A stretch of 63,974 nucleotides of DNA, counting the filler, from Malassezia furfur (Eukaryota), in the NCBI GenBank assembly GCA_052055015.1. It is 5 parts of 5 records of this genome, joined end to end, with 100 filler letters (N's around TTAATTAATTAA, not from the genome) between each part and the next. Parts side by side here need not be neighbours in the genome. Positions count along the whole stretch, not along the records: positions 41,897 to 55,741 come from JBQJIT010000299.1; 4 more parts are not named here. The stretch is one strand, 5' to 3'. The first letter of the stretch is position 1, and every line of letters starts with the position of its first letter. The position numbers and the translations under genes are program-made. This document shows, piece by piece, positions 6,678 through 55,841 of this stretch. The notes beneath the pieces are model-generated. The model made no database searches and was not told the DNA's origin. It was given only the letters and a program-made list of their open reading frames with translations.

Positions 6678-8522
6678 TCAATCTGCGGGGAAAGGTGGAG
6701 GCGCCGCTGCTTCTGGCACGCCGCTCGCGCCGGGAGCGGGCGACGTAGATTCCGAGCGCGCAGCAGACGGCGAGGCACGCGCTTCGACGGGCTTGCGCGG
6801 TGTCGGCGTCGCAAGGGAGGGTGTGCGCCCGACCCATTCCCACACCCGCTGCCACTCGCCATGCCATTCCACCTGCCGCGTGCGCACATTCGCATTTTGC
6901 TCCACGACGCGCGCAACGCGCGCCCACTGCTGCCGCCGCGCGCGCGCATCGGGGTCCGCGTGAAGTAGCTCATCCCGTAGATGCGTCGCAGGTACCTCGC
7001 GTGGACCCTCGCCCACAGCATGTCGCGCCGCCTGCAGCTGCAGATGCTCATAGACTTGCTGCACCTGCTGTGCGACGTGCCGATGCCGCAGTCGCGCCAT
7101 GCGCATACGGCGCACCAGCAAATACATCAGGCTGCACATGCTTACAACCAACGCCACGCGGAATCGGCTCCGCCACACGAGGTTCACCACATACAAACGG
7201 ACCCGGCAACTGATCGGTGCCGCAGCGCGTTCCGACGCAAACCACATCCCGTCCGATTGCGACAGCGACACAAATTCGTCGCGCGCATGCTCTTCTAACC
7301 CAGAGATAGCCATAGCCCATACCGACAAGAATGTCGCCGAATCCACCACATCGTCCGTCCGGTCCAGCAGCGCTGCTTGCACTTCGCGCGCCGGCACCGC
7401 ATAACGGCCCAGACGGTGCACTGGCGCATGCTCATACGATGTAGCACGCCCACACAGCACCTGGCCATGCCAATGCGCAAGGTACTCGACAATCGCATCT
7501 GACAACTCGCTCGCGAGGATAAGCTTGTATGTGTCAGGAACACACTGCGGCGCATGCCATGCAAATGGCGCCACATAGGACACCAGGGGAAGTTGCGCTA
7601 TCCCAGGCACCTCTGCAACGTATTCGCTGTCACATGCCTGCAGTGCGCCGCGCGCACACGCACCATGCTCTGGGCATGGCGTGCAGGCAGGCGAGGAGAG
7701 CGTGCCGCTTCCTGCTGTTGTGCCGTCGCAAAAACCTACAGCCGATGTGCGATGGCAGTAGTAGATCCAAACGGCCGCCGCGGACCACAGAACCCACCGC
7801 AGCAACGAAGCGCGCCAGTTGGCCAGCGCCTCGTGCAGCGAGACGGCAGGCCGGACGTTGTACGGCTGCTCGCGAGGCGCCGGCGCCTTTTCTTTTCGCA
7901 CCGTACGTGCACGAAGCATGTGCACCTGCTCTGGCGTGCGCGAGGGGGTATGTGCAAGCGCAGGTGCCTGGGATGGCGCCGAGCTGGATTTCCGATGCGG
8001 GGTAGCAACGGCCTCCGCCGGGTCCGGCTGGGCTGCGGGGCTTGGGGGCACATCCTCGTCCGATGGCGGGCTTGATTCATGTAGTATGGGATGCTCCGTC
8101 TTAATTTTTGGCGAGCTGGGCGTCCGGGCAGAGGCCGGGGGGGACAAGGATGCCGAAGCCCTGCGCTGGTCGAGCTGGAACGGATTCTCGTCGGCAAATT
8201 TGATCTCTGGTGTCGCAAACACAGGCTGGTCTGCGCCAGTGTGCCTGCGTGGTGTTGCAGTGGGTGTGGCAGATGTTTTCGTCTGCACTGGCTGCGACTT
8301 CCGCGGGGTGCCTACGCGCCGCGCAGGTGTGCGCTTCGGCGGCGCCTCTGCATCATCTTCCTGCGCACCCAGCGTAGGACGCACGTAGGTGTTAAAGGCC
8401 TCGACAAGCTCTGCCTTGCGTGCCCCACTCGGTACCGCGACTTCGTGTGCATGCAGGATGCGGCGCAAGTCGGCAACGCGCAGACTCGCGGCGTCCACCG
8501 CGGCGTCCAAACGCGGGGCCAT
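6678..8522 (-). CDS. SRC1: HEH/LEM-domain inner nuclear membrane protein (Src1/Man1 family)
   Basis: N-terminal HEH domain (LRVADLRRILHAHEV..ARKAELVEAF), two TM segments, luminal CTPCPEHGAC, C-terminal VEQNANVR..WEWVG. Confidence 0.88.
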   Translation of the reverse strand: MAPRLDAAVDAASLRVADLRRILHAHEVAVPSGARKAELVEAFNTYVRPTLGAQEDDAEAPPKRTPARRVGTPRKSQPVQTKTSATPTATPRRHTGADQPVFATPEIKFADENPFQLDQRRASASLSPPASARTPSSPKIKTEHPILHESSPPSDEDVPPSPAAQPDPAEAVATPHRKSSSAPSQAPALAHTPSRTPEQVHMLRARTVRKEKAPAPREQPYNVRPAVSLHEALANWRASLLRWVLWSAAAVWIYYCHRTSAVGFCDGTTAGSGTLSSPACTPCPEHGACARGALQACDSEYVAEVPGIAQLPLVSYVAPFAWHAPQCVPDTYKLILASELSDAIVEYLAHWHGQVLCGRATSYEHAPVHRLGRYAVPAREVQAALLDRTDDVVDSATFLSVWAMAISGLEEHARDEFVSLSQSDGMWFASERAAAPISCRVRLYVVNLVWRSRFRVALVVSMCSLMYLLVRRMRMARLRHRHVAQQVQQVYEHLQLQAARHAVGEGPREVPATHLRDELLHADPDARARRQQWARVARVVEQNANVRTRQVEWHGEWQRVWEWVGRTPSLATPTPRKPVEARASPSAARSESTSPAPGASGVPEAAAPPPFPAD

Positions 8523-13887: not shown

Positions 13888-13987
13888 NNNNNNNNNNNNN
13901 NNNNNNNNNNNNNNNNNNNNNNNNNNNNNNNTTAATTAATTAANNNNNNNNNNNNNNNNNNNNNNNNNNNNNNNNNNNNNNNNNNNN
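13888..13987. other. Artificial contig spacer
   Basis: N44-TTAATTAATTAA-N44; the linker puts stops in all six frames. Confidence 0.98.
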
Positions 13988-27846: not shown

Positions 27847-27946
27847 NNNNNNNNNNNNNNNNNNNNNNNNNNNNNNNNNNNNNNNNNNNNTTAATTAATT
27901 AANNNNNNNNNNNNNNNNNNNNNNNNNNNNNNNNNNNNNNNNNNNN
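27847..27946. other. Artificial contig spacer
   Basis: N44-TTAATTAATTAA-N44. Confidence 0.98.
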
Positions 27947-41796: not shown

Positions 41797-41896
41797 NNNN
41801 NNNNNNNNNNNNNNNNNNNNNNNNNNNNNNNNNNNNNNNNTTAATTAATTAANNNNNNNNNNNNNNNNNNNNNNNNNNNNNNNNNNNNNNNNNNNN
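41797..41896. other. Artificial contig spacer
   Basis: N44-TTAATTAATTAA-N44. Confidence 0.98.
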
Positions 41897-43959
41897 TTGG
41901 CTGCACGGAAGCCCGCATAGTCCTTGGTGTTGGCCAATGCCGCAGACGTCGTCGACGCAGGCGCCGTCCTCCACGGCGGCCGCACCACCGGCACGGCCGA
42001 CGGCGCCGGCGCCGCCGCCTCGGTCGGCGTCAGCACCACCGCCCCTGGCTTGGCACCCGCCGCATCCGTAGGCGCCTCGTCCGCATCGAGCTGGGCGATC
42101 GCCCAGTCGCTCAGCGCCGACGCCGCATGCCCCGCGGTGGCCGACAGGAACGAAAAGGCCGAGCGCCCCTCGCTTGGCGCCGATGCCTGCGCACCCGCGA
42201 GCGTCGGCGCGGGGGGCAGCTCACATGACTCGGACGAGAGCTTCGCGGCGTACGCCTGGATCTTGTCCAGGTAGGTGTGCAGCGTTGTCGACGCCGTCTC
42301 GCGCACCTCGCGATTCCGGTCCACGAGGCACGGCGCCAGCGCCGGCACGACGCTGCGTGCCGACGCCTCGGCATCAAAGGACGCCTCGTTCGTACGGAAG
42401 GCGTCGACACCGGCAAGCCGCGCCTGCTCATACACGTCCTTCAGACTGCGCGCAAACGCAGGCACCAGCACACTCGCGCGCGTCGTCGGCGTCACAAACG
42501 GCGTCAGCTTGCCGAGCAGCTGCGTCGTCTGGATGCGCAAGGCCGGCTGCCGATCCGTCTGCGTCTTGGCGAGCTGGCGCAGCAAATCGTTGTTCAGCAC
42601 GCGGTCGCTCAGCTTCGGCGCCAGCAGCGGAAGGCTCTCGAGCACCGCGGCACGCACCACCTCGTGCGGATCTTCGAGCCACGCCGCGACCGCCGGCCAC
42701 ACGCGGCCCATGACCGCCCGCGTGTCGAGGTGCGCGACGTACAGGCCGAGGTGCTGCAGCAGTGCCGCGCGCATCGGCGAGTACGGCGTGCCGAACGCAT
42801 CGAGCACCGGCGTGCCGAGCGTGTGCCGCCAGCGTGCCTCGTCCAGCGCCTCGCCGAGGCGCAGCATGAGCGGCAGCAACACGCGCGTCGACAGCTCCAA
42901 GCTGTCGTTCAGGCCATTGGGTATCGGTTTGCTGCGGAACGCCTCGACGAGCACAGGCAGCACCTTGCACTGGGAAAAGGTGGGCAGCAGCCGCGGCTGG
43001 AGCTGCTCGAGCTCGCCGAGAATCGCCTCCTTGTGGTGTGCATCGGCGAGGCGGAACTCTTCGACGAGCGCACTCGCACGCACCAGCTCGTTCTTGGTGA
43101 GGAAGCCGCCCGGCTGGTTGCCCGCCGCAACAAGGTCCGCCGCCGACAGCCGCGTGTGGGGGTCGGCATGGACCATCTGCCGCACGAGGGGATACAGCAG
43201 CGGAGGGATGCGCCCCGCAGGAAAGGTGCGCAGATTCGCAGGCACCTGGTCGTTGAACGCGTCGATGGCCAACACACCGATCGCAAAGCTGTCCACCGCC
43301 GGCACCGGCACGTCGGCGACGTGGCCCCACCCCGCCTCGACCTCGGGCGCAACGCGGTCGTGCGCATGCGGCGGCTGCCCGCCGTACGTCGCGAGAAAAG
43401 CGGCATCGCTGGCGGGCGCCATCGTCTCGAAGCCACCCAGGAGCCATTCGCCGGCGCCGGACAGGAAGACGCTCGCCGCGTGAATGTTGCCGTGGATCGC
43501 GCCGACCTGCGTGTGCAGGAACGCGGCGGCACTCGCAATGTGGCTCACGCCCCAGGCAACCCACGCATCGCTGCCCGGATCGCGCGCGTCTTGGCGCCAG
43601 CCGTCGAGCACCTGCGTCAACGGCGTGACGCGCTCGACCGCAAGGTAAATCGTGCCGTTCGTCTCGGCCATGTCGAGGTACTTGAGCACATAGGGGAACC
43701 GCAGCGAGCGCAGCTTGCGCACCGCGTTGTGTGCCATCGCGATCTGCGCGGGACTCGCGCGCGCGCCGTCAAACACAAAGACGCTCACCGGCAGCTGATC
43801 TTCCTGCGGGGTAAGCACGCGACGTACCTTGCGCACGCCCTCGTACAGGCGCCATAGACTCTGGCCCGCATACGACGTGACCTCGTCGCCCACGGATATG
43901 CCGGGAAGCGGGCCCCCGCCCTTGCCCAGCGCCGACGAGATCTGGCGCAAATAGTCCAT
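41897..43959 (-). CDS. CEX1: SCY1-family pseudokinase with HEAT repeats (Cex1/SCYL1), 3' end lost
   Basis: KLRSLRFPYVLKYL, IHGNIHAASVFLSGAGEWLLGGFE, LNNDLLRQLAKTQTD, AFARSLKD. Confidence 0.88.
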
Positions 43960-44015
43960 GGCACGCTAAGGTCTTGGGAAGAACGAGTGGAGGTGCGGTG
44001 CGCCTGGCTCCGTCC

Positions 44016-47000
44016 ATGAGCGACGCGTCGCGGATGCACGGCGAGGCGCTTGCGGGCGTCTCGCAGGAGGAGCTGCTGCAGGAGCTGCCCGTCGAGCAGT
44101 CCGACCTGATCCCCCTCGCGGCCCTCGTCGAGCGCCTGTCGAACAATGCGTACCAGACGCTGCAGAGCCTGAGCGACACCACCTCCTCGCTCTCGAACGA
44201 CGCCAAAAAGGCCAAGATCTTTGCGACGGCGATGGACTTGCGCAAGCAGTTTGTCAAGCTACTCGTACTCGTGCGCTGGTCTAAGGACGTGGCGCTCCTG
44301 AACAAGGCGCGCAACGTGATTGCCCTGCTGGTCGACCAGCAGTGGGCGCACGAAGACGTCTTCTCCGGACTGACGCAGGCGCGCAAGATTTTGCCGAACG
44401 CCCACATCTGCGACGCCGACCTCGTCACGGCCATCGACGTCATCCGCACGGGGACGTACCAGCGCCTCCCGGCGTCCATCCGGAACAGCACCGTGCCCAA
44501 GGCGCCCATGTCCAACGCGCAGGTCCTCGACGTGCTCCGTGCGCTCGATCAGGTGCTCCGTGTGCGCCTCACCTGCAACACGGTCACTCCGCAGGCCTTC
44601 CACCTGCAAAAGATCGCCGACGGCAAGGCATACTTTGCGGTGGACGGGCTGTACGACGCCTGCCTCACCACCAGTGGGCCCACCGACGAAGACCGCTGGT
44701 GGCTCCTCGACTTCCACTTTGCGGATGCGGCCACGGATGGCGACGAGGACCTCTCCGCCTCGCTTACCACGCCGTACCTCGAGAACGTGTTTGCGGCCGC
44801 CGAGGCCATGCTGAGCGAGCCGGCGTCGTCGGACGAGCCGATCCTCGTGCGTCTGCACGCCTTCCTGGAGCAGCAGGCGCTCCAGCGGCAGCTGCACATC
44901 TTGCACCACCAGCTCCAGCGCGTGAATCACCTGCACCTACGCGGCAACGTGCGGTTCTCACTCGACCTGGCAACGCACACGCTCGAACTGCAGTACTGGG
45001 CAGCACATGCGTCGGCCTCGGCGCAGGACCGGAGCAAGGCGCTCCACCGCCGCCTCTTGCACGGCAAGCTGCACCTCAAACTCCATACCGAGACGCTGAC
45101 CGGGGCCAACAAGGTCCTTTCGGACTTGCTCTCGGGCAATGCGGCATCGACGGGGCGCAGCTCCATCCTGGTCGACTGGGACGTCGATGAAGCCATTCGC
45201 GAGGCGACCCAGACGCTTCCCGAGCTCCGCTTGGAGCAGCTCGACATTGAGGCACTTGTCCTGGCCGCCACGGACCGGCATTCGCTCGCGCTCATGAAGA
45301 TCTTCCAGCAGCAGATCGTCGAGCATCCAGGGCTCGGTGCCGGCAACCCCGCGCAGTGCATCCTGCGCTCTCTGTCGAAGCAGGGCTTCGGGCCGCGGCA
45401 TGCGCTCGAGCTGCAGGTCACCGACAACATCCACATTATGCTCTACGTCTCCCTTATTACGGGGCGCGTCGGTATCAAGTCGCTTGATATGATGCAGACC
45501 CAGCGGGACGACATGCTCCAACTCGGCCTGAGCGAAGCCCAGGATGCGGCGCTGCAACGCATGGCCAACCAAATCAGCGCCGACACCGAAAAGCTGGCAG
45601 ACACGCTGCTCATGTTCCGGCTCCAGAGCCTCGCCAAGGAGCTCGAGCTGCAGGCGTCCTGGCTCGGCCTGGCGTACCTGCCCACCATTGCGCTCCGCCC
45701 CGGCGAGCTCGACAAGATTGGTCTCCCGAGCGGCTATCCACTGCTCTATCTTCCGCTGGGGATCTTACCGTCGTACTACATGTCGATCTACTTTGTCCCG
45801 AGACAGCCCATCACCATGGCGCTCGTCTCGGTGATGTCCATCATGGAGGCCGGCAAGGCGATGCAGGTCATCAGCTCGGTCAAGTGGCTCGACCGCAAGC
45901 ACCTTGCGAACGTCGCCGTGTCGGGCAAGCTGCTGCTCAATGCACCCAACAAGACATGGTCCGAAGAGGGAAACGCTTCTTTGCTGCGCTACGACCTCAC
46001 CTCGGAGGAACTGCAGCTGGCCTACAACTACTGCATCGCTACTGTGGCCTACTCCCACCTGGAAGAACAGCTGCGTCTCAAACTGATACCCTTTATGCTG
46101 GTCGGCGCCACCACCGACAAAGTGGCTACCCTGGCCCAGCACGCCGACCCTCTTTTGCCCAGCCTGCGGGTGAGCGTCGCAGAACTCGTGTCGCCATTTG
46201 CCGGGCTGACCGACTCAAACGTGTCGCTGCAAATTTGCGACTGGTGGCTGCCGGCCGACCGGCGTGTGGAGATTTCGTTGCGCGTCAAGTGGGAAGCACA
46301 AAAAGATGTGGGGCCCATCACCCTGTTCAACGACACCACGCTGGACCCAGCCACAGGGCAGCTGCGGCACACGTCGCGGGATCTGGCGGCGAGCGTCGCA
46401 CAGTTCCAGCGCCGCTGGGATCAGGTGGCACGGATGCTTCTTCTGATCAACACCGTCGCACAGTACCAGTCGGCCCACCGTTTCCACATTACCCTCTCTC
46501 ACGTGGGAGACAACAGGGTAACTCTAAGCTACGGAACGTCAGACAAGGCCCAACTGTCGGTTACCATCGTTTTCAATGAACTCGACGAGAGGCTGCCCAA
46601 GGACCGGTTTGAACTCGAGTTTGGCGTGCTCGACGGTGTTTCGTCGGAAACTGGCAACCCCCACGAACACCTTGCTACACTGATGCAAAACAAGCTGAAC
46701 ACCATTGCGAGCTCAACCGCCAATTACTGGAAGGGGTTCATCAGTGTACGTTGACGAGTGCTAACTCACCTAGATGCTGGAAAGCACCTTGCCATTGCTC
46801 TCGCTACTTGGCCCTTACATACAACGGTCGGCCACCGACATCGAGTGTCCTGAAATCAACATACAGGACGTCAACTGGTACCAAGTCCGCTTCCCGAACA
46901 AGTACGTGGGACCCATGATGCTAACCACCAGTTACATCCTAGACCTACGCCTGCTGACGGATAATCGGCTCCTCATTGTTGACGCCAATCAAGGGCTTAA

Positions 47001-47178
47001 GGGTGGTGAATCTGAAGCCAACGAGGCAGGCCACCCGAACCTGTCCAACCTATGGGTGGAAGTCACGGGGCGTGCACCTGCCACAGAGGACCAGGGACAT
47101 ACGGCACGTGCTGTGGCTAAGGTTACCCACGCGGAAGCAAACCTTGAAAAATTGTTCGAAACGATCAATAAAATATAG
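44016..47178 (+). CDS. MED14: Mediator subunit Med14 (Rgr1)
   Basis: LRKQFVKLLVLVRW, DLVTAIDVIRTG, IADGKAYF. Terminal introns at 46746-46773 and 46902-46931. Confidence 0.88.
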
Positions 47179-47660
47179 ATTTTAACATTAATATTATTAC
47201 ATATTGTACTAGTATTAGTATTAAATAATCAATGTAAAAAACAGATTAGTGATGTTTTGCAAGTATAATATTATAATAAGATATGTATTTATTTAATTAT
47301 ATGTAACCAAAAATAAATCAAATATAAAATGCACTATCGTAATCAATATTAAATATCATTTTATTGACATTTCTTAAGATTTTTGAATTTATTAGAAATA
47401 AAATATTTTTAAAAAACTAATTATTTAAACCTGCTTAATTACTTTTGCAGGGTTTCCAACTGCAACTGTATTAGCAGGAATATTCTTTGTCACAACGCTT
47501 CCTGCACCCTTTTTATGTTAGTAAACTTAATAAAAGAATTTCTTACAATTGTAACATTTTCACCAATCGTTACTCCGGCCCTTTTTGTTAGTTTATATCG
47601 TACATAATTGTTGTATTTCCACCGCTAAAAGTTAGTTTAAATTTTTTAAACTCACATCCA
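47179..47660. other. AT-rich GC trough, candidate centromere core
   Basis: 47179-47424 has about 36 G+C in 246 nt (~15% GC, hand count) against roughly 60-70% elsewhere. GC declines gradually from both flanks. Confidence 0.65.
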
Positions 47661-48302
47661 GCAATTTTTGCCAACTTTGATTGGAAGTGCCCGTTCGAGC
47701 ACAGACTGGCGCTCTGCGGGGTTGGTGGAGTGGGTCCCTGCGTAGAGGTGGACACTGTTCATGGTTAGCTGATGAACTTTACTCGGTCGTCTTGACACGA
47801 CAATCACTTACTTGGGTCCGAACAGTACTCCATCGCCAATCGTGATCTCAGCGCAATCTAGAAAGGTTGCGTTGAAGTTACAATAGAAGGATCCCTCAAA
47901 CTTCACATTGTCGCCGTAGTCACTGTCGCCTGTCAGATCCCAGAAAATCGAACTCACATCCAAAGCGGAGGTTCGATTTCGATCTTCTCTTCTTGGCCAT
48001 TTTCCAGCTTGAAGATCTCGGCGATCAACTCTCTGCGATCGCTCCCGGTGATCTCGAGTTTGGGCTCTGCCATTTCAGGAAAGTTGGCCGGAGGAGACAA
48101 GTTAAAAGCGTGAACAAGCTTTCGGACGGTGATACGACGCTCCGTAAGTTCCTTGTCGGTAGGGTTGTAGGCAAGACCAAGCAACATCTGAGGTGTAAGT
48201 TTCGGAGCTCCTAGAAATTCTCACCTTTTGCCGCTCGGTCATTTGATCATACTGGTCTCCATACTTCTTGTCAGCCTCAGCATAACGTTGTTCGGCAGAC
48301 AT
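47425..48302 (-). CDS. Maltose/galactoside O-acetyltransferase (hexapeptide-repeat family), 7 exons
   Basis: Introns at 48188-48224, 47923-47957, 47755-47811, 47625-47655, 47581-47603, 47509-47546. Spliced product reads [87 protein letters not shown]. Confidence 0.92.
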
Positions 48303-48416
48303 TTTGGATACCAAAGCAACCTGGCAGGGGAGAGCGATCTACTAAGCGGGGTTCGCGTTGGGGCGCGTTTGGCGCGTAAATGGGGCTGGCGCGCATCCAC
48401 TATGCACGTGGATTTA

Positions 48417-50993
48417 CTACACTGCATACCTCCTATGAGCATTTTGGTAGTCGCGCCGGACTTCCTCGATGGCCGACGCACGATCGTCTGTAACCTTCGC
48501 CACCGTAGTAGTCATAGTCTGAAGTGCCGAAGGCGGCGTGTCGTTGGATAGAAGGGGTTTAGCGAGCGTGATTGGATTGCCAGCCCATTCGGCCAGGCGT
48601 TTGTCCATGTCCTTCAGATGAGACAGTGCTGGTGAGACGGCCTCCTTGCACTTCCGTGAGCTCATACCACATACCGACTCCTTCCGGCGCTCAGAAAGGG
48701 TCTCAACGATGCGCAAACCCTGCGCCGTCAGTCACCACACCTACCTCAATACCGATCCAGGCGGCATGCAATGCCGCGAAGCCATTCGCTGCTTTCTCCA
48801 CCAAGCAGACAATACCTGCGGTAAGGAACACCATCACGTACGCTGAAAGAAAGACTCCAACGAGGTAACGGGAATATCTGAGCCAGTTTTCTTGCCGTGC
48901 AAAGATCGTAAAAGGCAAACCAACGCTGTTTCGGCTTCCGTCAATTCATCGCCCAGCTCTTGGTGTGTGGGGGCCTCTACCTCCAGCACCGAGGCCAGGA
49001 CTTCCAGGAAGATCAAAATCCACGATGTCGCCCGTTTGGGACCGAGTGAAGTGGCACGTTGGATAGCGTCCCATTTGCTCCGATCGTAGCAAGGGATCAA
49101 CGTGTTGTCTCGCTGGTCACTGAAGCCCCCTTGGGCTGCAATATCCACCAGCCGTTGGATCGTTTTGATTGCCTGTTTCTTTTCGTGCCCTTCGAGGTCC
49201 CCCTGGATCAATTTGGCACGGATCAAGTCGAGTTCAACGAGAGCGCGGGTGCAAGACGTTTCGACCCGCTTCTCAAACTCGGAAAGATGCGCAATCTGCG
49301 AAAACTTGTTGTTCGAGAACGCTTGTCCAATGACATCTGGGACTTCAAACTGGCTCTGTGCGTAGAATTTCTTGAGATGGTCGGTGTACTGCTTGGCGTA
49401 GACTTTGTGGAGCGTCCCTCCAAAGGCCGTATTCCGATCCAAGCCGTAATGCGAAGCTGTGTCCCACTGCACTGCTTTTAAGCCCAAGGCGTCGAAATGA
49501 TCGGCGGCCAAGTCCAGGGCACCTAGTTGGAGCAGCAGGCGAATCAACAAAAGACGAATGTGATAGGCCTTGTTGCTCTCCGTCACGCCATACAATGCAA
49601 GACCAGTTGCACTGGGAATGGATTCCGTCGTATTCGAAGCCAACGTATCATAGGCAGCCAGGACGAGGAGGTCATCTCCCACTTGCATCTCGGTGGTTGG
49701 AAGCCGCACTTGGTCCAGCGACTGGGCATATTCGCGCAGCAGGTCCATGGTCTGTGTAATAGAGTCCTTGGTATCTCCCAGCAGGTAGCCAATCTTTCTC
49801 GCATTCACACACGTCCTCACTCCATTTTCCGACGCCAAGTTCAACTTGGTCCCCTTCACTTTTTCCATAAACGCGTGGCGTTCCGGCTCGGTTAAGCTGG
49901 TCAGGTAGGGATGCAGATCATCAAAGCAGGAGGCCCGCGAGCTGAACCGTGCGAAGAATTTGGTCATCAAGGGGACATAGCCCAGCCCATGTTTCGTCAA
50001 GGCCTGGTCGGGGAGTTTGGCATTACGCGAAAGCCGGAATGCCTCGAGGATGCCCAGCAACGAGCCCCTGTCCGCCCATTTGTCCTGCTCGCATGCAGAG
50101 ATCAGCACGCGGACATCGCCATCGGGCAGCGCTGGCGTCTCGACTTTCAGGGCTTCATGAACCAGCGTCTGTACGAACAAGGAAATGACGGCCCAATTGC
50201 GGTCCCCGTTCTGAATGCGAGAGCGACAATCGTTTAGGATCTGATTAAAGTCCCCGTTAGCCTCCCAAGCCTCGCGCAGCAGGAACTGGATGCTCAGGCT
50301 GTTCTCCACCAATCGCTTTGGCCCCGGTTCTTGCAGAAGTGCGAGCGCCGACTGGAATGGTTCCTTCCCCAACAGCATGTAGAAGCGCAGGTAGAGGAAC
50401 AAGGTTTCTTCTGTCAGCTGCGACACATCCACGGGGTGGTCCTGGATGAGGCGGTTGGCGACCTGCAGCGCCAGCGCCGACCCCGGCGGCTTCAGCGATT
50501 GGGACTGCGTCAGTGTCGTGCGACCTACATGAAGCACGGCCAGCTGGATGTACCGCCAGTAGCTCTGCTTGTCCTTTTTTGCCTTGAACTGCTTGAGCAC
50601 CTGCTGCTGTGCTCGCTGGTACATGCGCGCTTTCAGCAACGCGGTCAAAGCGTCCTCGGCCATGTCCTTGTCCTTGGGTTTGGCTTCGCTGGCAAGCACG
50701 TAGAGCTCGGCCAGTTTCTGGCCCATCCCCAGGCGTGGCATGACGATCGACAAGGGGGGCAGCACACTCGTGCTCACGTTGCCCTGAAGAACCTGCTCGA
50801 CCTGATTTTTGGCCTCGTCTTCTTGGCCCAGCTGGAGCAGCGCAATGGAGCGCAGCGCGCCGGCGAGCGGAAGCCAGCCTTTGCGCTGCACCTGGTCAGC
50901 CTTGGTCAGAGCCAAGGGATAGTTTCCCGTATCGAGCGCATTGTAAATATCGGAGCACCGGTACTGGTCCAACACGCTCCCACGAGTCGACAT
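48417..50993 (-). CDS. NAA25: NatB auxiliary subunit Naa25/Mdm20
   Basis: IYNALDTGNYPLAL, RNGDRNW, FSSRASCFDDL, LGLKAVQWDT, AFSNNKFSQI..F. Two short introns near 48.72-48.84 kb join the C-terminal exons. Confidence 0.85.
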
Positions 50994-51026
50994 GAGCAGA
51001 GACAAACTGAGGGTTCCTCCACCTGC

Positions 51027-52346
51027 ATGGATGACCAGCCGAGTGACACCTCGCTGTCCCTTCCGAGTCCGCGGCACCTCGCGGGGGCCGGCGCGGGTCC
51101 GGCATCGGTAGTAGACTCGCCCACCCTATCGATTCGCCAGCAGCAGGGGCGCACGCACCTCCCGGAGTGCAGCTCGCCCTTGTTTCTCGCGGACCGCACG
51201 TCGCCTTCCCCCGCACCGTCGCCGAAGCGACCGCGTCGCGCGCGCCTCACTGCCGAAGAACGCGAGAAGAGGCAAGCGGAGCGCGTGCGCGAGCTCGCAG
51301 AGCGGCAGCGATGGCGAGAAGCTAACCGGATCCGACAGCGGCGGTCGGACACTATGCGGGACTTGATTGTACGACTCGACGCCGAGGCCGCCCAGGGCCC
51401 TCTTGCGCCGGTCCTGCCCCAGCTCCGGGAAAAGTGGGAGGCAGACGGGGCTACGGTGTACATATCTACCCCCTCGCTCGTGCAGGCGCCGAAGCAGACG
51501 GGCGTCATTGTGTTTGAGCGTCGCGTACGGTCCGAGTATGATCCGGTTCAGAAGCTATGGACCCCACTGGACGAGGAGCAGATCCAGCGCGAATCCACCC
51601 GGCTGCACATTGTCGCGCCCGAGGCCCTGCAGGACCTGGTGCGCCGCGGAGGCCTCGCTGAGGCGCTTCTGCATGCGACACCACCGGCGCTGGGACCCAA
51701 CGTGCATGTAGAGACGCCGGTGCGGCACGTCTTGATGGTCCTGGGCCTCGATGCCTACCTCAAGCAGCTGCGCACCGCCCAGCACCGGGCCTATACAGAG
51801 CATGTGCGGCAACGGGTCCAGCAAGGCCAAAGCAGTACACGGCTGCAGCTCCCCAGCGAAGAAGATGCACGGACCGACATCGACCAGGCACTGCTTCGGC
51901 TGCAGATGCTGCACGCGTGCTACGTGGTCCAGATTCCTCAGGTACACGACGCGGTGGACCATCTGTATTCTATTGCCTGCGACGTGTCCATACGTCCGTA
52001 CAAGCTGCTCGAGGGCCGGCGCGAGGCCCCTGCGCGTGCGTCGCGCACCATCACGGGGCCATCCCACCTGGCCACGTTCCAAGCGATGCTCGAGCAGATT
52101 CCGCGGTGCACGCCGGCGGCCATTTATGCCATCACGGAACGATACCCCACCTTCCATTCGCTGATGGAGGCCTTTGCTTCGAAAACGCCGGAGGAAGGCG
52201 CGGCGTTGTTGAGCGCCCTCGAGGTACGTCGCCCACTCACCCAGTGCCGAAGCGGACGAAGCACACGGCGACTCGGCCCGCAACTCGCGCGGCGTATCTA
52301 TGAGGTGTTTACGAGCGAGCACGGCGAGGCAGCCATCGACGCATGA
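51027..52346 (+). CDS. EME1: Crossover junction endonuclease subunit Eme1/Mms4
   Basis: ERCC4-like domain (IDQALLRLQMLHAC, IRPYK) and HhH2 (MLEQIPRCTPAAIYAITERYPT..RRLGPQLARRIY). 21-nt in-frame intron at 52224-52244. Confidence 0.82.
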   Translation: MDDQPSDTSLSLPSPRHLAGAGAGPASVVDSPTLSIRQQQGRTHLPECSSPLFLADRTSPSPAPSPKRPRRARLTAEEREKRQAERVRELAERQRWREANRIRQRRSDTMRDLIVRLDAEAAQGPLAPVLPQLREKWEADGATVYISTPSLVQAPKQTGVIVFERRVRSEYDPVQKLWTPLDEEQIQRESTRLHIVAPEALQDLVRRGGLAEALLHATPPALGPNVHVETPVRHVLMVLGLDAYLKQLRTAQHRAYTEHVRQRVQQGQSSTRLQLPSEEDARTDIDQALLRLQMLHACYVVQIPQVHDAVDHLYSIACDVSIRPYKLLEGRREAPARASRTITGPSHLATFQAMLEQIPRCTPAAIYAITERYPTFHSLMEAFASKTPEEGAALLSALEVRRPLTQCRSGRSTRRLGPQLARRIYEVFTSEHGEAAIDA

Positions 52347-52347
52347 G

Positions 52348-53709
52348 CTACACGCTGGGCACTGGCGCCTCGCCCAGATGGAGGAACGAGGCGGGGTACC
52401 GCATACGAAACTGGACGGACGCCAGCGCGTCCTGTGCATCGCGCGCCATGCGCACGTCGGAAAAGAACGCCTGCGCACTGTCGAGCACCTGCCGGTCCTT
52501 GGCCGAGAAGCCGCTCTCGATCCGGTCGACGTAGGCGCCCTCGGTAAATAGGACGTGGGCGGGCGCCAGAGACGGCGCCTCCCAGCCGTACAAGTTCGAG
52601 ATCGACTCGTACAGTTCGTAGCGGAACGACTCGTACGACGTCTTGTGCGTCTGCCCGCGGTCGGTCCACGCACCACGCAGCTCGCGCGGCCACCCGCCGG
52701 AGAACATGGACGAGTTGAGCTTGACACGCTGCGACTCCTCTGATTCGTTCAGCACCGGGCCACTTCCGATCCAGCGGATGTCCAGCTGGAGGAGCCGCGA
52801 CGCGCCCATCTTTTCAAGCAACACGTCCTCGCCCTCGACACTGAGCTGCTGGAAGAAGGGCCGAAGGCGCGAGGCCATAATGTCGGTCGGGCGGTAGGAA
52901 AACTTGCGTGTGTCGTACCGGAGGTAGGTGACCCCCGGCGTCCAGTCCAGGTCCACGGCGTCCTGCGACAGGTCAATCTGCGTGTTGCCGTTCTGCACAA
53001 GGTAGGCATGCAGGAAGCTGCCCGGGCTCGTGCTGCCGACACACAACGGCTCCAGCACATCAATGGGCATAGGCAGCCCAGTGAGCTCGCTTTGGGGGTC
53101 GACGCCGGTGATGTGCAAGTACCGTAGCCGGCGCCGTAGCATCGGTACACGCTCCTTCCACGTCTGTGGCACGGCGTACGCACCGCGCGCCGCGTTCGCG
53201 TTGGGGTACGGCGGGAAGATGGTGCGCAGCAGACTCTCGTTCCCATTGTACATGAGCCGCAGGCTGATGGGCGATACCTTGTCGAGGCACGCGGAGAAGG
53301 CCTGCAGCTCGGCACTACCAAGTGACAGCGCGTCCAGATTCGGAAAGCAGGCGAGGAACTCGTGCTCGCTGACCATGCGCTGCCGGACGTCGGCGGGCAG
53401 TTCAGCGAGGGTGGTGAGTAGATCGGTGGACGGCGTTTCTGTGTTGACCTGCAGGATTCGGGTATACTGGGCCGGGTTTCCGCTCGGCACCGACACCATG
53501 CTCTGGGCCTCGTCCGCGGCCTGCACGGCGTACAAGAATTGCAAGAGGCACACGAGCGCCTCGATTGAGGTCAGGGAGATGGACCGCCAGCGCGCTTCCT
53601 TGGTGCAGTTGCATGCCAGCTTCGACACGTACGCCAGCGACCGTGCCGTGCGATGGTCTGCGTTGGCTGCACGCACGAAAATGCTACGAAGCAGTTCGGA
53701 CGGGAGCAT
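52348..53709 (-). CDS. Hypothetical protein with F-box-like N-terminus
   Basis: 453-aa ORF starting LPSELLRSIF. Otherwise unrecognised. Confidence 0.65.
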   Translation of the reverse strand: MLPSELLRSIFVRAANADHRTARSLAYVSKLACNCTKEARWRSISLTSIEALVCLLQFLYAVQAADEAQSMVSVPSGNPAQYTRILQVNTETPSTDLLTTLAELPADVRQRMVSEHEFLACFPNLDALSLGSAELQAFSACLDKVSPISLRLMYNGNESLLRTIFPPYPNANAARGAYAVPQTWKERVPMLRRRLRYLHITGVDPQSELTGLPMPIDVLEPLCVGSTSPGSFLHAYLVQNGNTQIDLSQDAVDLDWTPGVTYLRYDTRKFSYRPTDIMASRLRPFFQQLSVEGEDVLLEKMGASRLLQLDIRWIGSGPVLNESEESQRVKLNSSMFSGGWPRELRGAWTDRGQTHKTSYESFRYELYESISNLYGWEAPSLAPAHVLFTEGAYVDRIESGFSAKDRQVLDSAQAFFSDVRMARDAQDALASVQFRMRYPASFLHLGEAPVPSV

Positions 53710-53806
53710 GGTGCATGGTGGGTGTGGGGCGCCTCCGATAAGCGCACGGACGTGACCATCCCATGGAATTACATACGCACATGACCCAATGTACGGTGAT
53801 CGAAAT

Positions 53807-53905
53807 GGCAGGGTAGCAAAGTGGTCTAATGCAGCGGCCTTAAGCAGCCGAGTGTTTTACACTCGCGAGATCCGCCATTCGCGGGTTCGAACCCCGCCCT
53901 TGCCA
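53807..53905 (+). tRNA. tRNA-Leu(TAA) with probable 25-nt intron at 53845-53869 and atypically short variable loop
   Basis: Acceptor stem GGCAGGG/CCTTGCC-A, Leu-type D-loop AGTGGTCTAA, CT-TAA-G loop, T-arm GCGGG-TTCGAAC-CCCGC, downstream T-run. Confidence 0.8.
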
Positions 53906-53906
53906 T

Positions 53907-55613
53907 TTATTTTTCGCGGAGGTGCACGCCAATCGGGCCGTAGGCGTGTGCCTGGTGCAGGCGCAGTGCGCCGGCCGTGGCGAGGACGAGCAGGTGCCAC
54001 ACTGGTGAGCGACACACGTACGAGCGTTGGCCGCGTGGCGCGCAGGGTCCGTTGGCGCCACGAGCTGGTCCAAGGTGAGTCGCCGTGTCGCCGACGTCTG
54101 GCACAGCAGCCGCACGTACACGAGAAAGTCGTGCGTTTCCGGCTCGACCTGCGCTTCAGGCTCCTCTGAGACTGCATCAGCGTGCCACGCACCGTCAAAC
54201 CGCGCATCCTCGGAGCCTTGGCCCATCCACGACGGCACGAGCGACGACCGCGCACTGACCACCGGCGACGCCAAACGCGCACTGAGACTCGATTCGCGGG
54301 GTCTGGTGAGTCGACGGCGTACCTGCGGAGCTCGAACAGCTCGCGCGACAGGTCTGGTGAGGGCAGCGAGTAGGCGCCGTGCAGCACACTCGCGAAGCTC
54401 TCGTTCCCGTGCGTATCGCTGCGACTCGCGGGGCTCCGACCCATCACGGGCGCTGCGCCCAAATGGCTCCAGGGGTACACGGCCGGCGGCAGGTCGCCCT
54501 CGCTCCCATCCAGGGCACGGCCGACTTCGGGCGAGGGCGGCGGCGGCTCACTCGGCTCGAGCGGTGCCAGGTCCATCGGCTCGGCGTCGTGCGTCGCGCG
54601 CTGCTGCGCGGCCCATTCGTGCTTGCGCACCTGCGCACAGTGCCGAAAGTGGGACGCCAGCGACGCGAGGCGCTGCCCAACGGTGCGCTGCCACAGCGAC
54701 TCGCGGTGCGGACTCGTGAGGGCGCCTGAATCAGCCACGCACGTACACAACCACGCTATGGGTCCGTGCGGCGCCGCATCGGCGATCGTATAAAACGCCG
54801 GCTCGCGGCGCGGGGGGATGCACCGCCGTGCCCACTCCTCGGGCGTGTATCCAATGCGCCGGTCGTGACGACACGCCGCCCTCCGCTGGGCGGCTGCGTG
54901 CACGCACACGGCGCGGTAGTCGGCGTCCGGCGCGGCGGCCGGCACGGGCAGGCGGCTGAGGTCTGCGCGCGTCTGCGGCGTGCGGTCCGCAACAAAGTCG
55001 GCGGGGATGGGCACGTCGCGCGGCCCCTCGACCAGCAGGTCCAAGTCCATGGGCTCGCCGGGGTCCAGCGGGGCGTCCAGCTCCGTCGACGCCCACGACG
55101 TCTCGGCATGGTCCGTGCGAGGGGGCGTGGGCGACGGCGGGGTGCGGTGCGGCGCCAGGAGCGTGGCGCGTGCCGAGGTGCGGTGCACGGGGTCGTACAG
55201 GAGGGTGGCTATGTCGTCGAGCGTGTACGTATACGACGACACCGGGGGGGCTTTGCGCAAGAGGTGCCGCAGCTGCGCCTCGGTGGTGTGCACGTCTGGA
55301 GCCGCGCGGGGGCGCTGGAGGCGCTTCCACTCGCATGCAGTGCGGCGCACGTCGCGTGCCCATGCCTCGAGCTGCGCGTGAAAGATGCGTGCGGCGCCGA
55401 GCAGCACGAAACTCGTCTGGACGAGCATGCGGGGCGTGGTGGAGAGCTGGGCGGCGAGGCTGATGAGCCGGAGGCGTACCAGACCTGTGCGACATCCACG
55501 CTGAGGATGTGGCGCATCTTGAGGCGCACATGGCACGACGCCGTGCCGAGCGTTGCGGCGATCCTGTGTGAGCGGCCGCGCACGCACCACACACAGTCGG
55601 CACTCGAGGCCAT
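53907..55613 (-). CDS. REC8: Rad21/Rec8-family kleisin, probably meiotic Rec8
   Basis: Spliced N-terminus VWIAATLG..RLKMRHILSVDVAQVC..VLLGAARIF and C-terminus AANALWHLLVLATAGALRLHQAHAYGPI. Introns at 55564-55587 (24 nt) and 55460-55479, 54303-54322, 54002-54021 (20 nt each). Confidence 0.78.
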
Positions 55614-55741
55614 AGAGAGCAGCGTGGCGGCGTGGCATGATATACGTATCTATGGATGTGTCTAGGGCTCGTTGGTGCGGCTCGGCCCGGTGCCGTTGCG
55701 GCGTCGCCGGCCGCGGCGGCGGTGCGGCTCGGCCCGGTGCC

Positions 55742-55841
55742 NNNNNNNNNNNNNNNNNNNNNNNNNNNNNNNNNNNNNNNNNNNNTTAATTAATTAANNN
55801 NNNNNNNNNNNNNNNNNNNNNNNNNNNNNNNNNNNNNNNNN
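55742..55841. other. Artificial contig spacer
   Basis: N44-TTAATTAATTAA-N44. Confidence 0.98.

Follow-up and report, generated by a model that had tools for sequence, protein, structure and literature searches.

A short AT-rich core in a Malassezia furfur hybrid genome is the probable P1-type copy of centromere MfCEN2

Does the deep AT-rich trough between two convergent genes of Malassezia furfur mark a centromere, and if so, which one, and is it still in use? The window, by which we mean the whole stretch of 63,974 nt that was analysed, has an overall GC content of ~64%, and the 246 nt of intergenic DNA at 47179–47424 have 14.6%, in agreement with a preliminary description that had put this interval, between the stops of MED14 and an acetyltransferase gene, at ~15% GC and had proposed it as a centromere. 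The two genes are convergent, as their stop codons lie at 47176–47178 (TAG, plus strand) and 47425–47427 (minus strand). AT-richness continues to about 47660, as had been described, with 47179–47660 at 23.2% GC. Scanned at a 10-nt step, the lowest 250-nt segment in the window is found at 47171 (14.8% GC), and the second-lowest separate segment has 45.2%. The remark that nothing else in the window is comparable therefore holds as a number, but it is a comparison across unrelated contigs. The window had been taken as one stretch of a chromosome, a view that has to be abandoned: it consists of five size-sorted contigs (13887, 13859, 13850 and 13845, with the last one cut at 8133) and a stop-codon linker flanked by runs of N at each junction, and contigs elsewhere in the assembly are likewise ordered by size. 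Any synteny or ORF that crosses an N44-TTAATTAATTAA-N44 linker is artificial, and since the five contigs are unrelated, the GC minimum of a chromosome is not readable from the window. The features of the contig that carries the trough, with its linker, are as follows.

41797–41896, no strand: artificial linker N44-TTAATTAATTAA-N44, with identical linkers at 13888–13987, 27847–27946 and 55742–55841
41897–55741, no strand: contig C299, colinear with contig C291 over 13.9 kb at 84.0% identity
41902–43959, minus strand: HEAT-repeat protein, truncated by the contig end (Pfam HEAT)
44016–47178, plus strand: MED14 (Mediator subunit), 1044 aa, with a 28-nt intron at 46746–46773 (Pfam Med14, E=7.8e-47; splice check)
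47149–47617, no strand: AT-rich core, 469 nt, 22.6% GC, overlapping the 3' end of MED14 and the last acetyltransferase exons and introns (<40% GC in 250-nt windows)
47425–48302, minus strand: maltose/galactoside O-acetyltransferase (Mac plus hexapeptide type), 218 aa, seven exons (Pfam Mac, E=4.2e-9; gene model)
47430–47447, minus strand: the only match in the window to the MfCEN2 forward ChIP primer, with three mismatches (primer search)
48834–50993, minus strand: NAA25/MDM20 (NatB auxiliary subunit), main ORF without its 3' exons (Pfam NatB_MDM20, E=7e-57)
51018–52346, plus strand: EME1-like gene, start approximate (Pfam EME1-MUS81_C, E=1.6e-12)
52348–53709, minus strand: 453-aa protein without a Pfam family, used as lineage marker (KAI3613328.1 99.8%, M. 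brasiliensis MBRA1_002300 94%, homeolog 92%)

The Pfam matches bear out the earlier assignments of MED14, the acetyltransferase, NAA25 and EME1. To the left of MED14, where CEX1 had been named, Pfam finds HEAT repeats but does not itself confirm the CEX1 identity. The relatives of the 453-aa protein are Malassezia proteins and Ustilago proteins labelled as F-box domain-containing. A tRNA at 53807–53905 (plus strand) was matched by Rfam and missed by ARAGORN; it probably contains an intron and by eye is of Leu type with anticodon TAA. The acetyltransferase introns measure 37, 35, 57, 31, 23 and 38 nt, and the 23-nt one, a GT-AG intron at 47581–47603 (minus strand) that frame conservation alone points to, is unusually short for a spliceosomal intron and has the same length in the homeolog.

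The genome of the window, with 13.68 Mb in 1856 contigs, falls in the size class of hybrids, and searching it returned a second copy of the locus on C291. Both MfCEN2 ChIP primers (sequences from PMC7025860, supplementary file 1) match this copy exactly and span 218 bp, and the reverse primer has no match in the window within three mismatches. In the part of that paper available to us, CENP-A ChIP-qPCR gives 1.13–1.40% of input at MfCEN2 against 0.035–0.087% at the control (nine values each), and the validated MfCEN2 is the P2 homeolog, assayed in a haploid strain. At the MfCEN2 homeolog and in M. sympodialis, CENP-A is reported to sit on a repeat-free AT-rich core with H3 depleted, and the kinetochore to cover 3–5 kb, including adjoining transcribed genes. 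The lineage of the window copy can be read from the 453-aa protein, which shares 99.8% identity with a protein named as coming from the P1 reference, M. furfur CBS9595; for the C291 copy the value is 91.6%. P1×P2 hybrids of M. furfur have been described, with ~89% similarity between the parents and ~20% loss of heterozygosity (PMC9040865, as far as its text was available), and the 84% identity of C299 and C291 is in line with that genome-wide value. The colinearity with the primer-bearing contig, the P1 protein match and the published hybrids together identify the window copy as the P1-type homeolog of MfCEN2; the host genome is a P1×P2 hybrid.

Chromosomal position agrees with this identification. 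The M. brasiliensis ortholog of the 453-aa protein is on a record of 1,798,441 bp, matching the length of that species' Chr2, for which the consulted portion of PMC10410736 predicts CEN2 at ~64 kb from one end; MfCEN2 is placed 68.8 kb (~69 kb) from its chromosome end in that of PMC7025860. This agreement is at chromosome level only. The M. sympodialis ortholog lies on a 518-kb record, which fits the published partial synteny at CEN2. The trough may already be displayed in the SI Appendix of PMC10410736; the centromere table, in the part of that source we had, omits both M. furfur strains, and the string 'centromer' has no occurrence in the available text of the M. furfur hybrid paper PMC9040865. 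Synteny with mapped Malassezia centromeres, which the preliminary description had named as a check, is thus found in the colinear C291 with its exact primer matches, and the centromere call itself is upheld by a homeolog that has the CENP-A-validated primers and the same trough, length and GC. On these sequence comparisons, we consider it highly probable that the trough is chromosome 2's short regional centromere as inherited from the P1 parent, homeologous to MfCEN2 and probably active.

To calibrate the core against other centromeres, we used the rule of PMC10410736, Dataset S1C (<40% GC in 250-nt windows). Primers for six of the seven MfCENs were found in the genome, with both primers of a pair at 0–1 mismatch and each pair on an AT trough, and four of the six (CEN1, CEN2, CEN3 and CEN4) have a homeolog with its own trough. 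The search of the same genome recovered no homeolog of CEN6 or CEN7, only the P2-type copies on C446 and C248, respectively, and the one P2 primer searched for MfCEN5 had no match within two mismatches, which suggests that one parental copy of small chromosomes has been lost in the hybrid. The ten recovered cores measure 456–603 nt with minima of 12.8–16.0% GC per 250 nt, and the window core, at 469 nt and a minimum of 14.4%, is therefore typical, neither small nor eroded. An unusually small core, as had been proposed, is not what the uniform rule gives, and published M. furfur cores, in the portion of PMC7025860 consulted, range from 168 to 721 bp, with CEN2 itself at 168 bp (M. sympodialis, 81–1152 bp). 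The sub-1-kb AT-rich core that characterizes Malassezia short regional centromeres is present, at 469 nt and 22.6% GC. Among the 44 non-centromeric contigs used as controls (the four other window contigs plus 40 fetched; 418,539 bases), none has a 250-nt window below 41.2% GC, and every other trough found in the 54 contigs examined, out of 1856, is another known CEN. The other window contigs have shallow dips of 45–52% GC per 250 nt at ~10.1–11, 16.5, 21.4 and 61.5–62 kb, which are far weaker than the centromere core. The idea that the core hides an RNA gene or an array of repeats was rejected: repeat searches found no long direct or inverted repeats, only short, degenerate matches, Rfam found nothing in the core, its sole match being the tRNA 6 kb away, and the fold of the core DNA has z=-1.94.

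The AT shift extends beyond the intergenic DNA. Both flanking genes are intact, and the acetyltransferase is so in both homeologs, with six introns each and 201 of 218 residues identical; a broken or imported acetyltransferase was accordingly discarded as a candidate. Within it, introns 4–6 have 18–26% GC against 44–46% in introns 1 and 3, and third-position GC drops from 0.59 in exons 1–4 to 0.22 in exons 5–7. As the shift carries through introns and third positions of a conserved gene, it is a regional change in composition. Across four homeolog pairs, GC at four-fold sites declines from 0.90/0.86 at 3–4.5 kb to 0.59/0.63 within 600 nt, and the difference between homeologs at these sites is 0.36 within 600 nt versus 0.24–0.31 beyond 1.2 kb. 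We did not retain a raised mutation rate near the core as an explanation, since the rise is modest and confounded by composition.

Comparison of the parental copies shows that length has been kept and sequence has not. The CEN2 intergenic region is 246 nt with 14.6% GC in the window and 245 nt with 13.1% GC in the homeolog, and the other homeolog core pairs measure 470/467, 501/494 and 512/507 nt. The two CEN2 intergenic regions are 66.4% identical, a level that shuffled sequence also reaches (66.4%); over the core pairs, aligned identity is 63–66% against 64–66% for shuffles and a mean of 67% for unrelated cores, and alignment scores stand only ~2–3 SD above shuffles. From this combination of kept length and shuffle-level identity, we infer that the site is set by chromatin and AT content, and perhaps by length, and not by exact sequence. 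The published 12-bp AT-rich motif is given as a figure logo in the part of PMC7025860 available to us, and a shared k-mer test was substituted for it. With CEN2 left out of training, the window core is not enriched for shared k-mers (p=0.24–0.44); on k-mers, a shared motif was therefore rejected for the window core, the enrichment seen with the CEN2 homeolog in training having vanished. The trough would be maintained by a regional pressure toward AT, which would also lower the GC of flanking introns and silent sites. The hybrid thus holds pairs of P1 and P2 centromeres in one genome with near-complete sequence turnover at fixed length, from lineages ~11% apart.

Two other accounts of the trough have to be weighed. 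One is that the P1 CEN2 was recently silenced in the hybrid, for example after a rearrangement that made a dicentric chromosome, too recently for its AT content to erode. Centromere inactivation is known in the M. furfur lineage (PMC7025860, in part), hybrids show loss of heterozygosity and aneuploidy (PMC9040865, in part), two centromeres, CEN6 and CEN7, appear single-copy here, and the strictly non-coding part of the window core is the least skewed, as described below. Against this, the window core is on a par in GC and length with the copies that carry validated primers, its flanks run colinear with those of the P2 copy along the entire contig, and no rearrangement is visible. Two inactivated M. 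furfur centromeres, on MfChr3, are reported to have lost AT richness (PMC7025860, same portion), and this mark of inactivated Malassezia centromeres is absent at the window core, whose AT richness equals that of the six copies to which validated primers map; the proposal of a recently inactivated centromere is left without support, and we regard such silencing as improbable.

The other account gives the trough no centromere role at all and makes it an AT-rich terminator, an insert of foreign or organelle origin or an assembly chimera. A position between convergent stops would suit a terminator, and a window built by artificial concatenation of contigs invites suspicion of a chimera, but the trough lies mid-contig on C299, and an independent homeolog has the same one. 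These observations, with an AT shift that grades across the introns and silent positions of a conserved gene that is intact, sustain the earlier judgement that the trough does not look like a chimeric join. The absence of any comparable trough (below 41% GC) from all 44 control contigs and the primers of a CENP-A-bound locus on the homeolog count further against this account, which we consider very unlikely. A P1-type copy of MfCEN2, probably active, remains the preferred reading.

The set of cores also has a strand asymmetry. In all ten, A exceeds T in the left half, and the balance moves toward T in the right half (pooled A/T of 1151/844 and 836/1080, respectively), by 0.14–0.43 over the ten and 0.22–0.43 in the six independent P2 copies; the control shift averages 0.01. 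Two controls were used. Against 58 gaps of 250–1000 nt between predicted coding segments, the cores differ with p ~5e-5, and the window shift of 0.198 is reached by 7 of the 58. Against the lowest-GC 470-nt window of each control contig, of which 22 of 44 have positive shifts, they differ with p ~3e-5. CEN1 and CEN2 lie between convergent genes, CEN3 and CEN4 between divergent ones and CEN6 and CEN7 between tandem ones; the right-hand ORF of CEN7 has no Pfam match, and the right-hand match of CEN3 is below cut-off. As the A-to-T switch holds in all three settings, gene ends do not explain it. Among these neighbours, an indoleamine 2,3-dioxygenase gene (Pfam IDO; L017 2–1375, minus strand) directly adjoins CEN3, and the others are RNB, DDI1-like protease, otubain, PAP2, Sedlin, amino-acid transporter and ArfGAP genes.

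The flanks are polarized as well. With a correction by codon box, G is favoured over C at four-fold sites more in coding segments that point away from the core than in those that point toward it, where segments are stretches of at least 80 codons with a heuristic amino-acid score >25, the exons of one gene are counted separately and centre-spanning segments are dropped. The polarity is +0.132 in the P2 set (18 versus 14 segments, p=0.002) and +0.134 in the homeologs (9 versus 12, non-independent). A control of four contigs gave +0.076, nearly as strong as the centromeres, and the control set was therefore enlarged to 44. About their own midpoints, these contigs have a polarity of +0.036 (p=0.0007), so that the centromere flanks are at ~4x the control value, and in 2000 resamplings of six control contigs the P2-set polarity was never reached (mean 0.036, sd 0.03). 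The ends of C299 and C291 nearly coincide at GC-rich places (70–76% GC), which indicates that assembly breaks follow GC content, and such GC-driven breaks may underlie the small control polarity. The signal is weakest in the window copy, where the core gives p=0.07, the 246-nt non-coding part shows no switch and the polarity is drawn from 1 versus 5 segments.

A constitutive replication origin at or adjoining Malassezia centromeres would imprint both the A/T switch and the G/C polarity of the flanks, and we see this as possible, at somewhat under an even chance. Causes other than an origin, namely fork stalling or termination with the opposite mutational sign, directional nucleosome positioning by poly(dA:dT) or position-in-gene codon effects, have an even chance of accounting for the skew. 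They would fit the non-zero polarity of the controls, a T/A polarity at four-fold sites (0.063) no larger than theirs (0.072), a GC skew that shifts positively inside only six of the ten cores, and the lack of a switch in the intergenic DNA of the window; moreover, the leading strand may have either sign in Malassezia. They fit less well with a core switch that is indifferent to gene orientation, with a flank polarity that no resampled control set reached and with a sign equal to that of Candida centromere-origins (PMC2924309, in part). Returning to the origin, a more tentative extension is that Malassezia cores are constitutive early origins defined by a length of ~470–500 nt and an oriented A-rich-to-T-rich composition and not by a motif, with two unalignable cores both working under a mixed kinetochore in the same hybrid nucleus. 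In that event, the two alleles of the hybrid could be compared directly to test whether centromere specification is independent of sequence and whether chromosome loss favours one parent. A centromere–origin link, if real, would provide a mechanism for the inheritance of motif-poor centromeres and would be relevant to the proposal that breaks at centromeres drive changes of karyotype and mating type in Malassezia. A literature search on Malassezia centromeres with skew or origin, in which coverage of subscription papers was thin, found no paper on centromere skew, and 'skew' and 'asymmetr' have no occurrence in the available text of PMC7025860. For a skew test in another species, the M. globosa CEN6 primer was searched in metagenome contigs and had no match. 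Taken alone, the CEN2 locus of the window is ordinary, since the centromere has already been mapped in the allele of the other parent, and its value is comparative; the kept core length and the origin-like skew seen over the set of centromeres are modest, testable additions made here.

The closest parallels outside the genus are the centromere-origins of C. albicans (Koren et al. 2010, PMC2924309, in the portion consulted), where skew reverses at a small regional centromere with the sign seen in Malassezia cores, and those of Y. lipolytica described there, which combine AT skew without GC skew with a local drop in GC, as Malassezia cores do. A reversal of this type, independent of gene orientation, is found in the ten cores as a set, at p=0.07 in the window copy alone and with smaller, non-zero values in controls. 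Malassezia differs in belonging to another phylum and in being known here from sequence, with a signal that the controls share in part and that the window copy shows weakly. In comparison with MfCEN2 (Sankaranarayanan et al. 2020, PMC7025860), the window copy has the same syntenic position, core length, GC and flanking genes, and differs as the P1 allele, with a non-coding core unalignable above shuffle and one primer without a match. The match with short regional centromeres in M. sympodialis, M. globosa and M. slooffiae, and those predicted in M. brasiliensis and other species (PMC10410736, in part), extends to the sub-kb, repeat-free AT core, the sharp GC minimum and the intact genes directly beside the core, and nothing structural sets the window copy apart from them.
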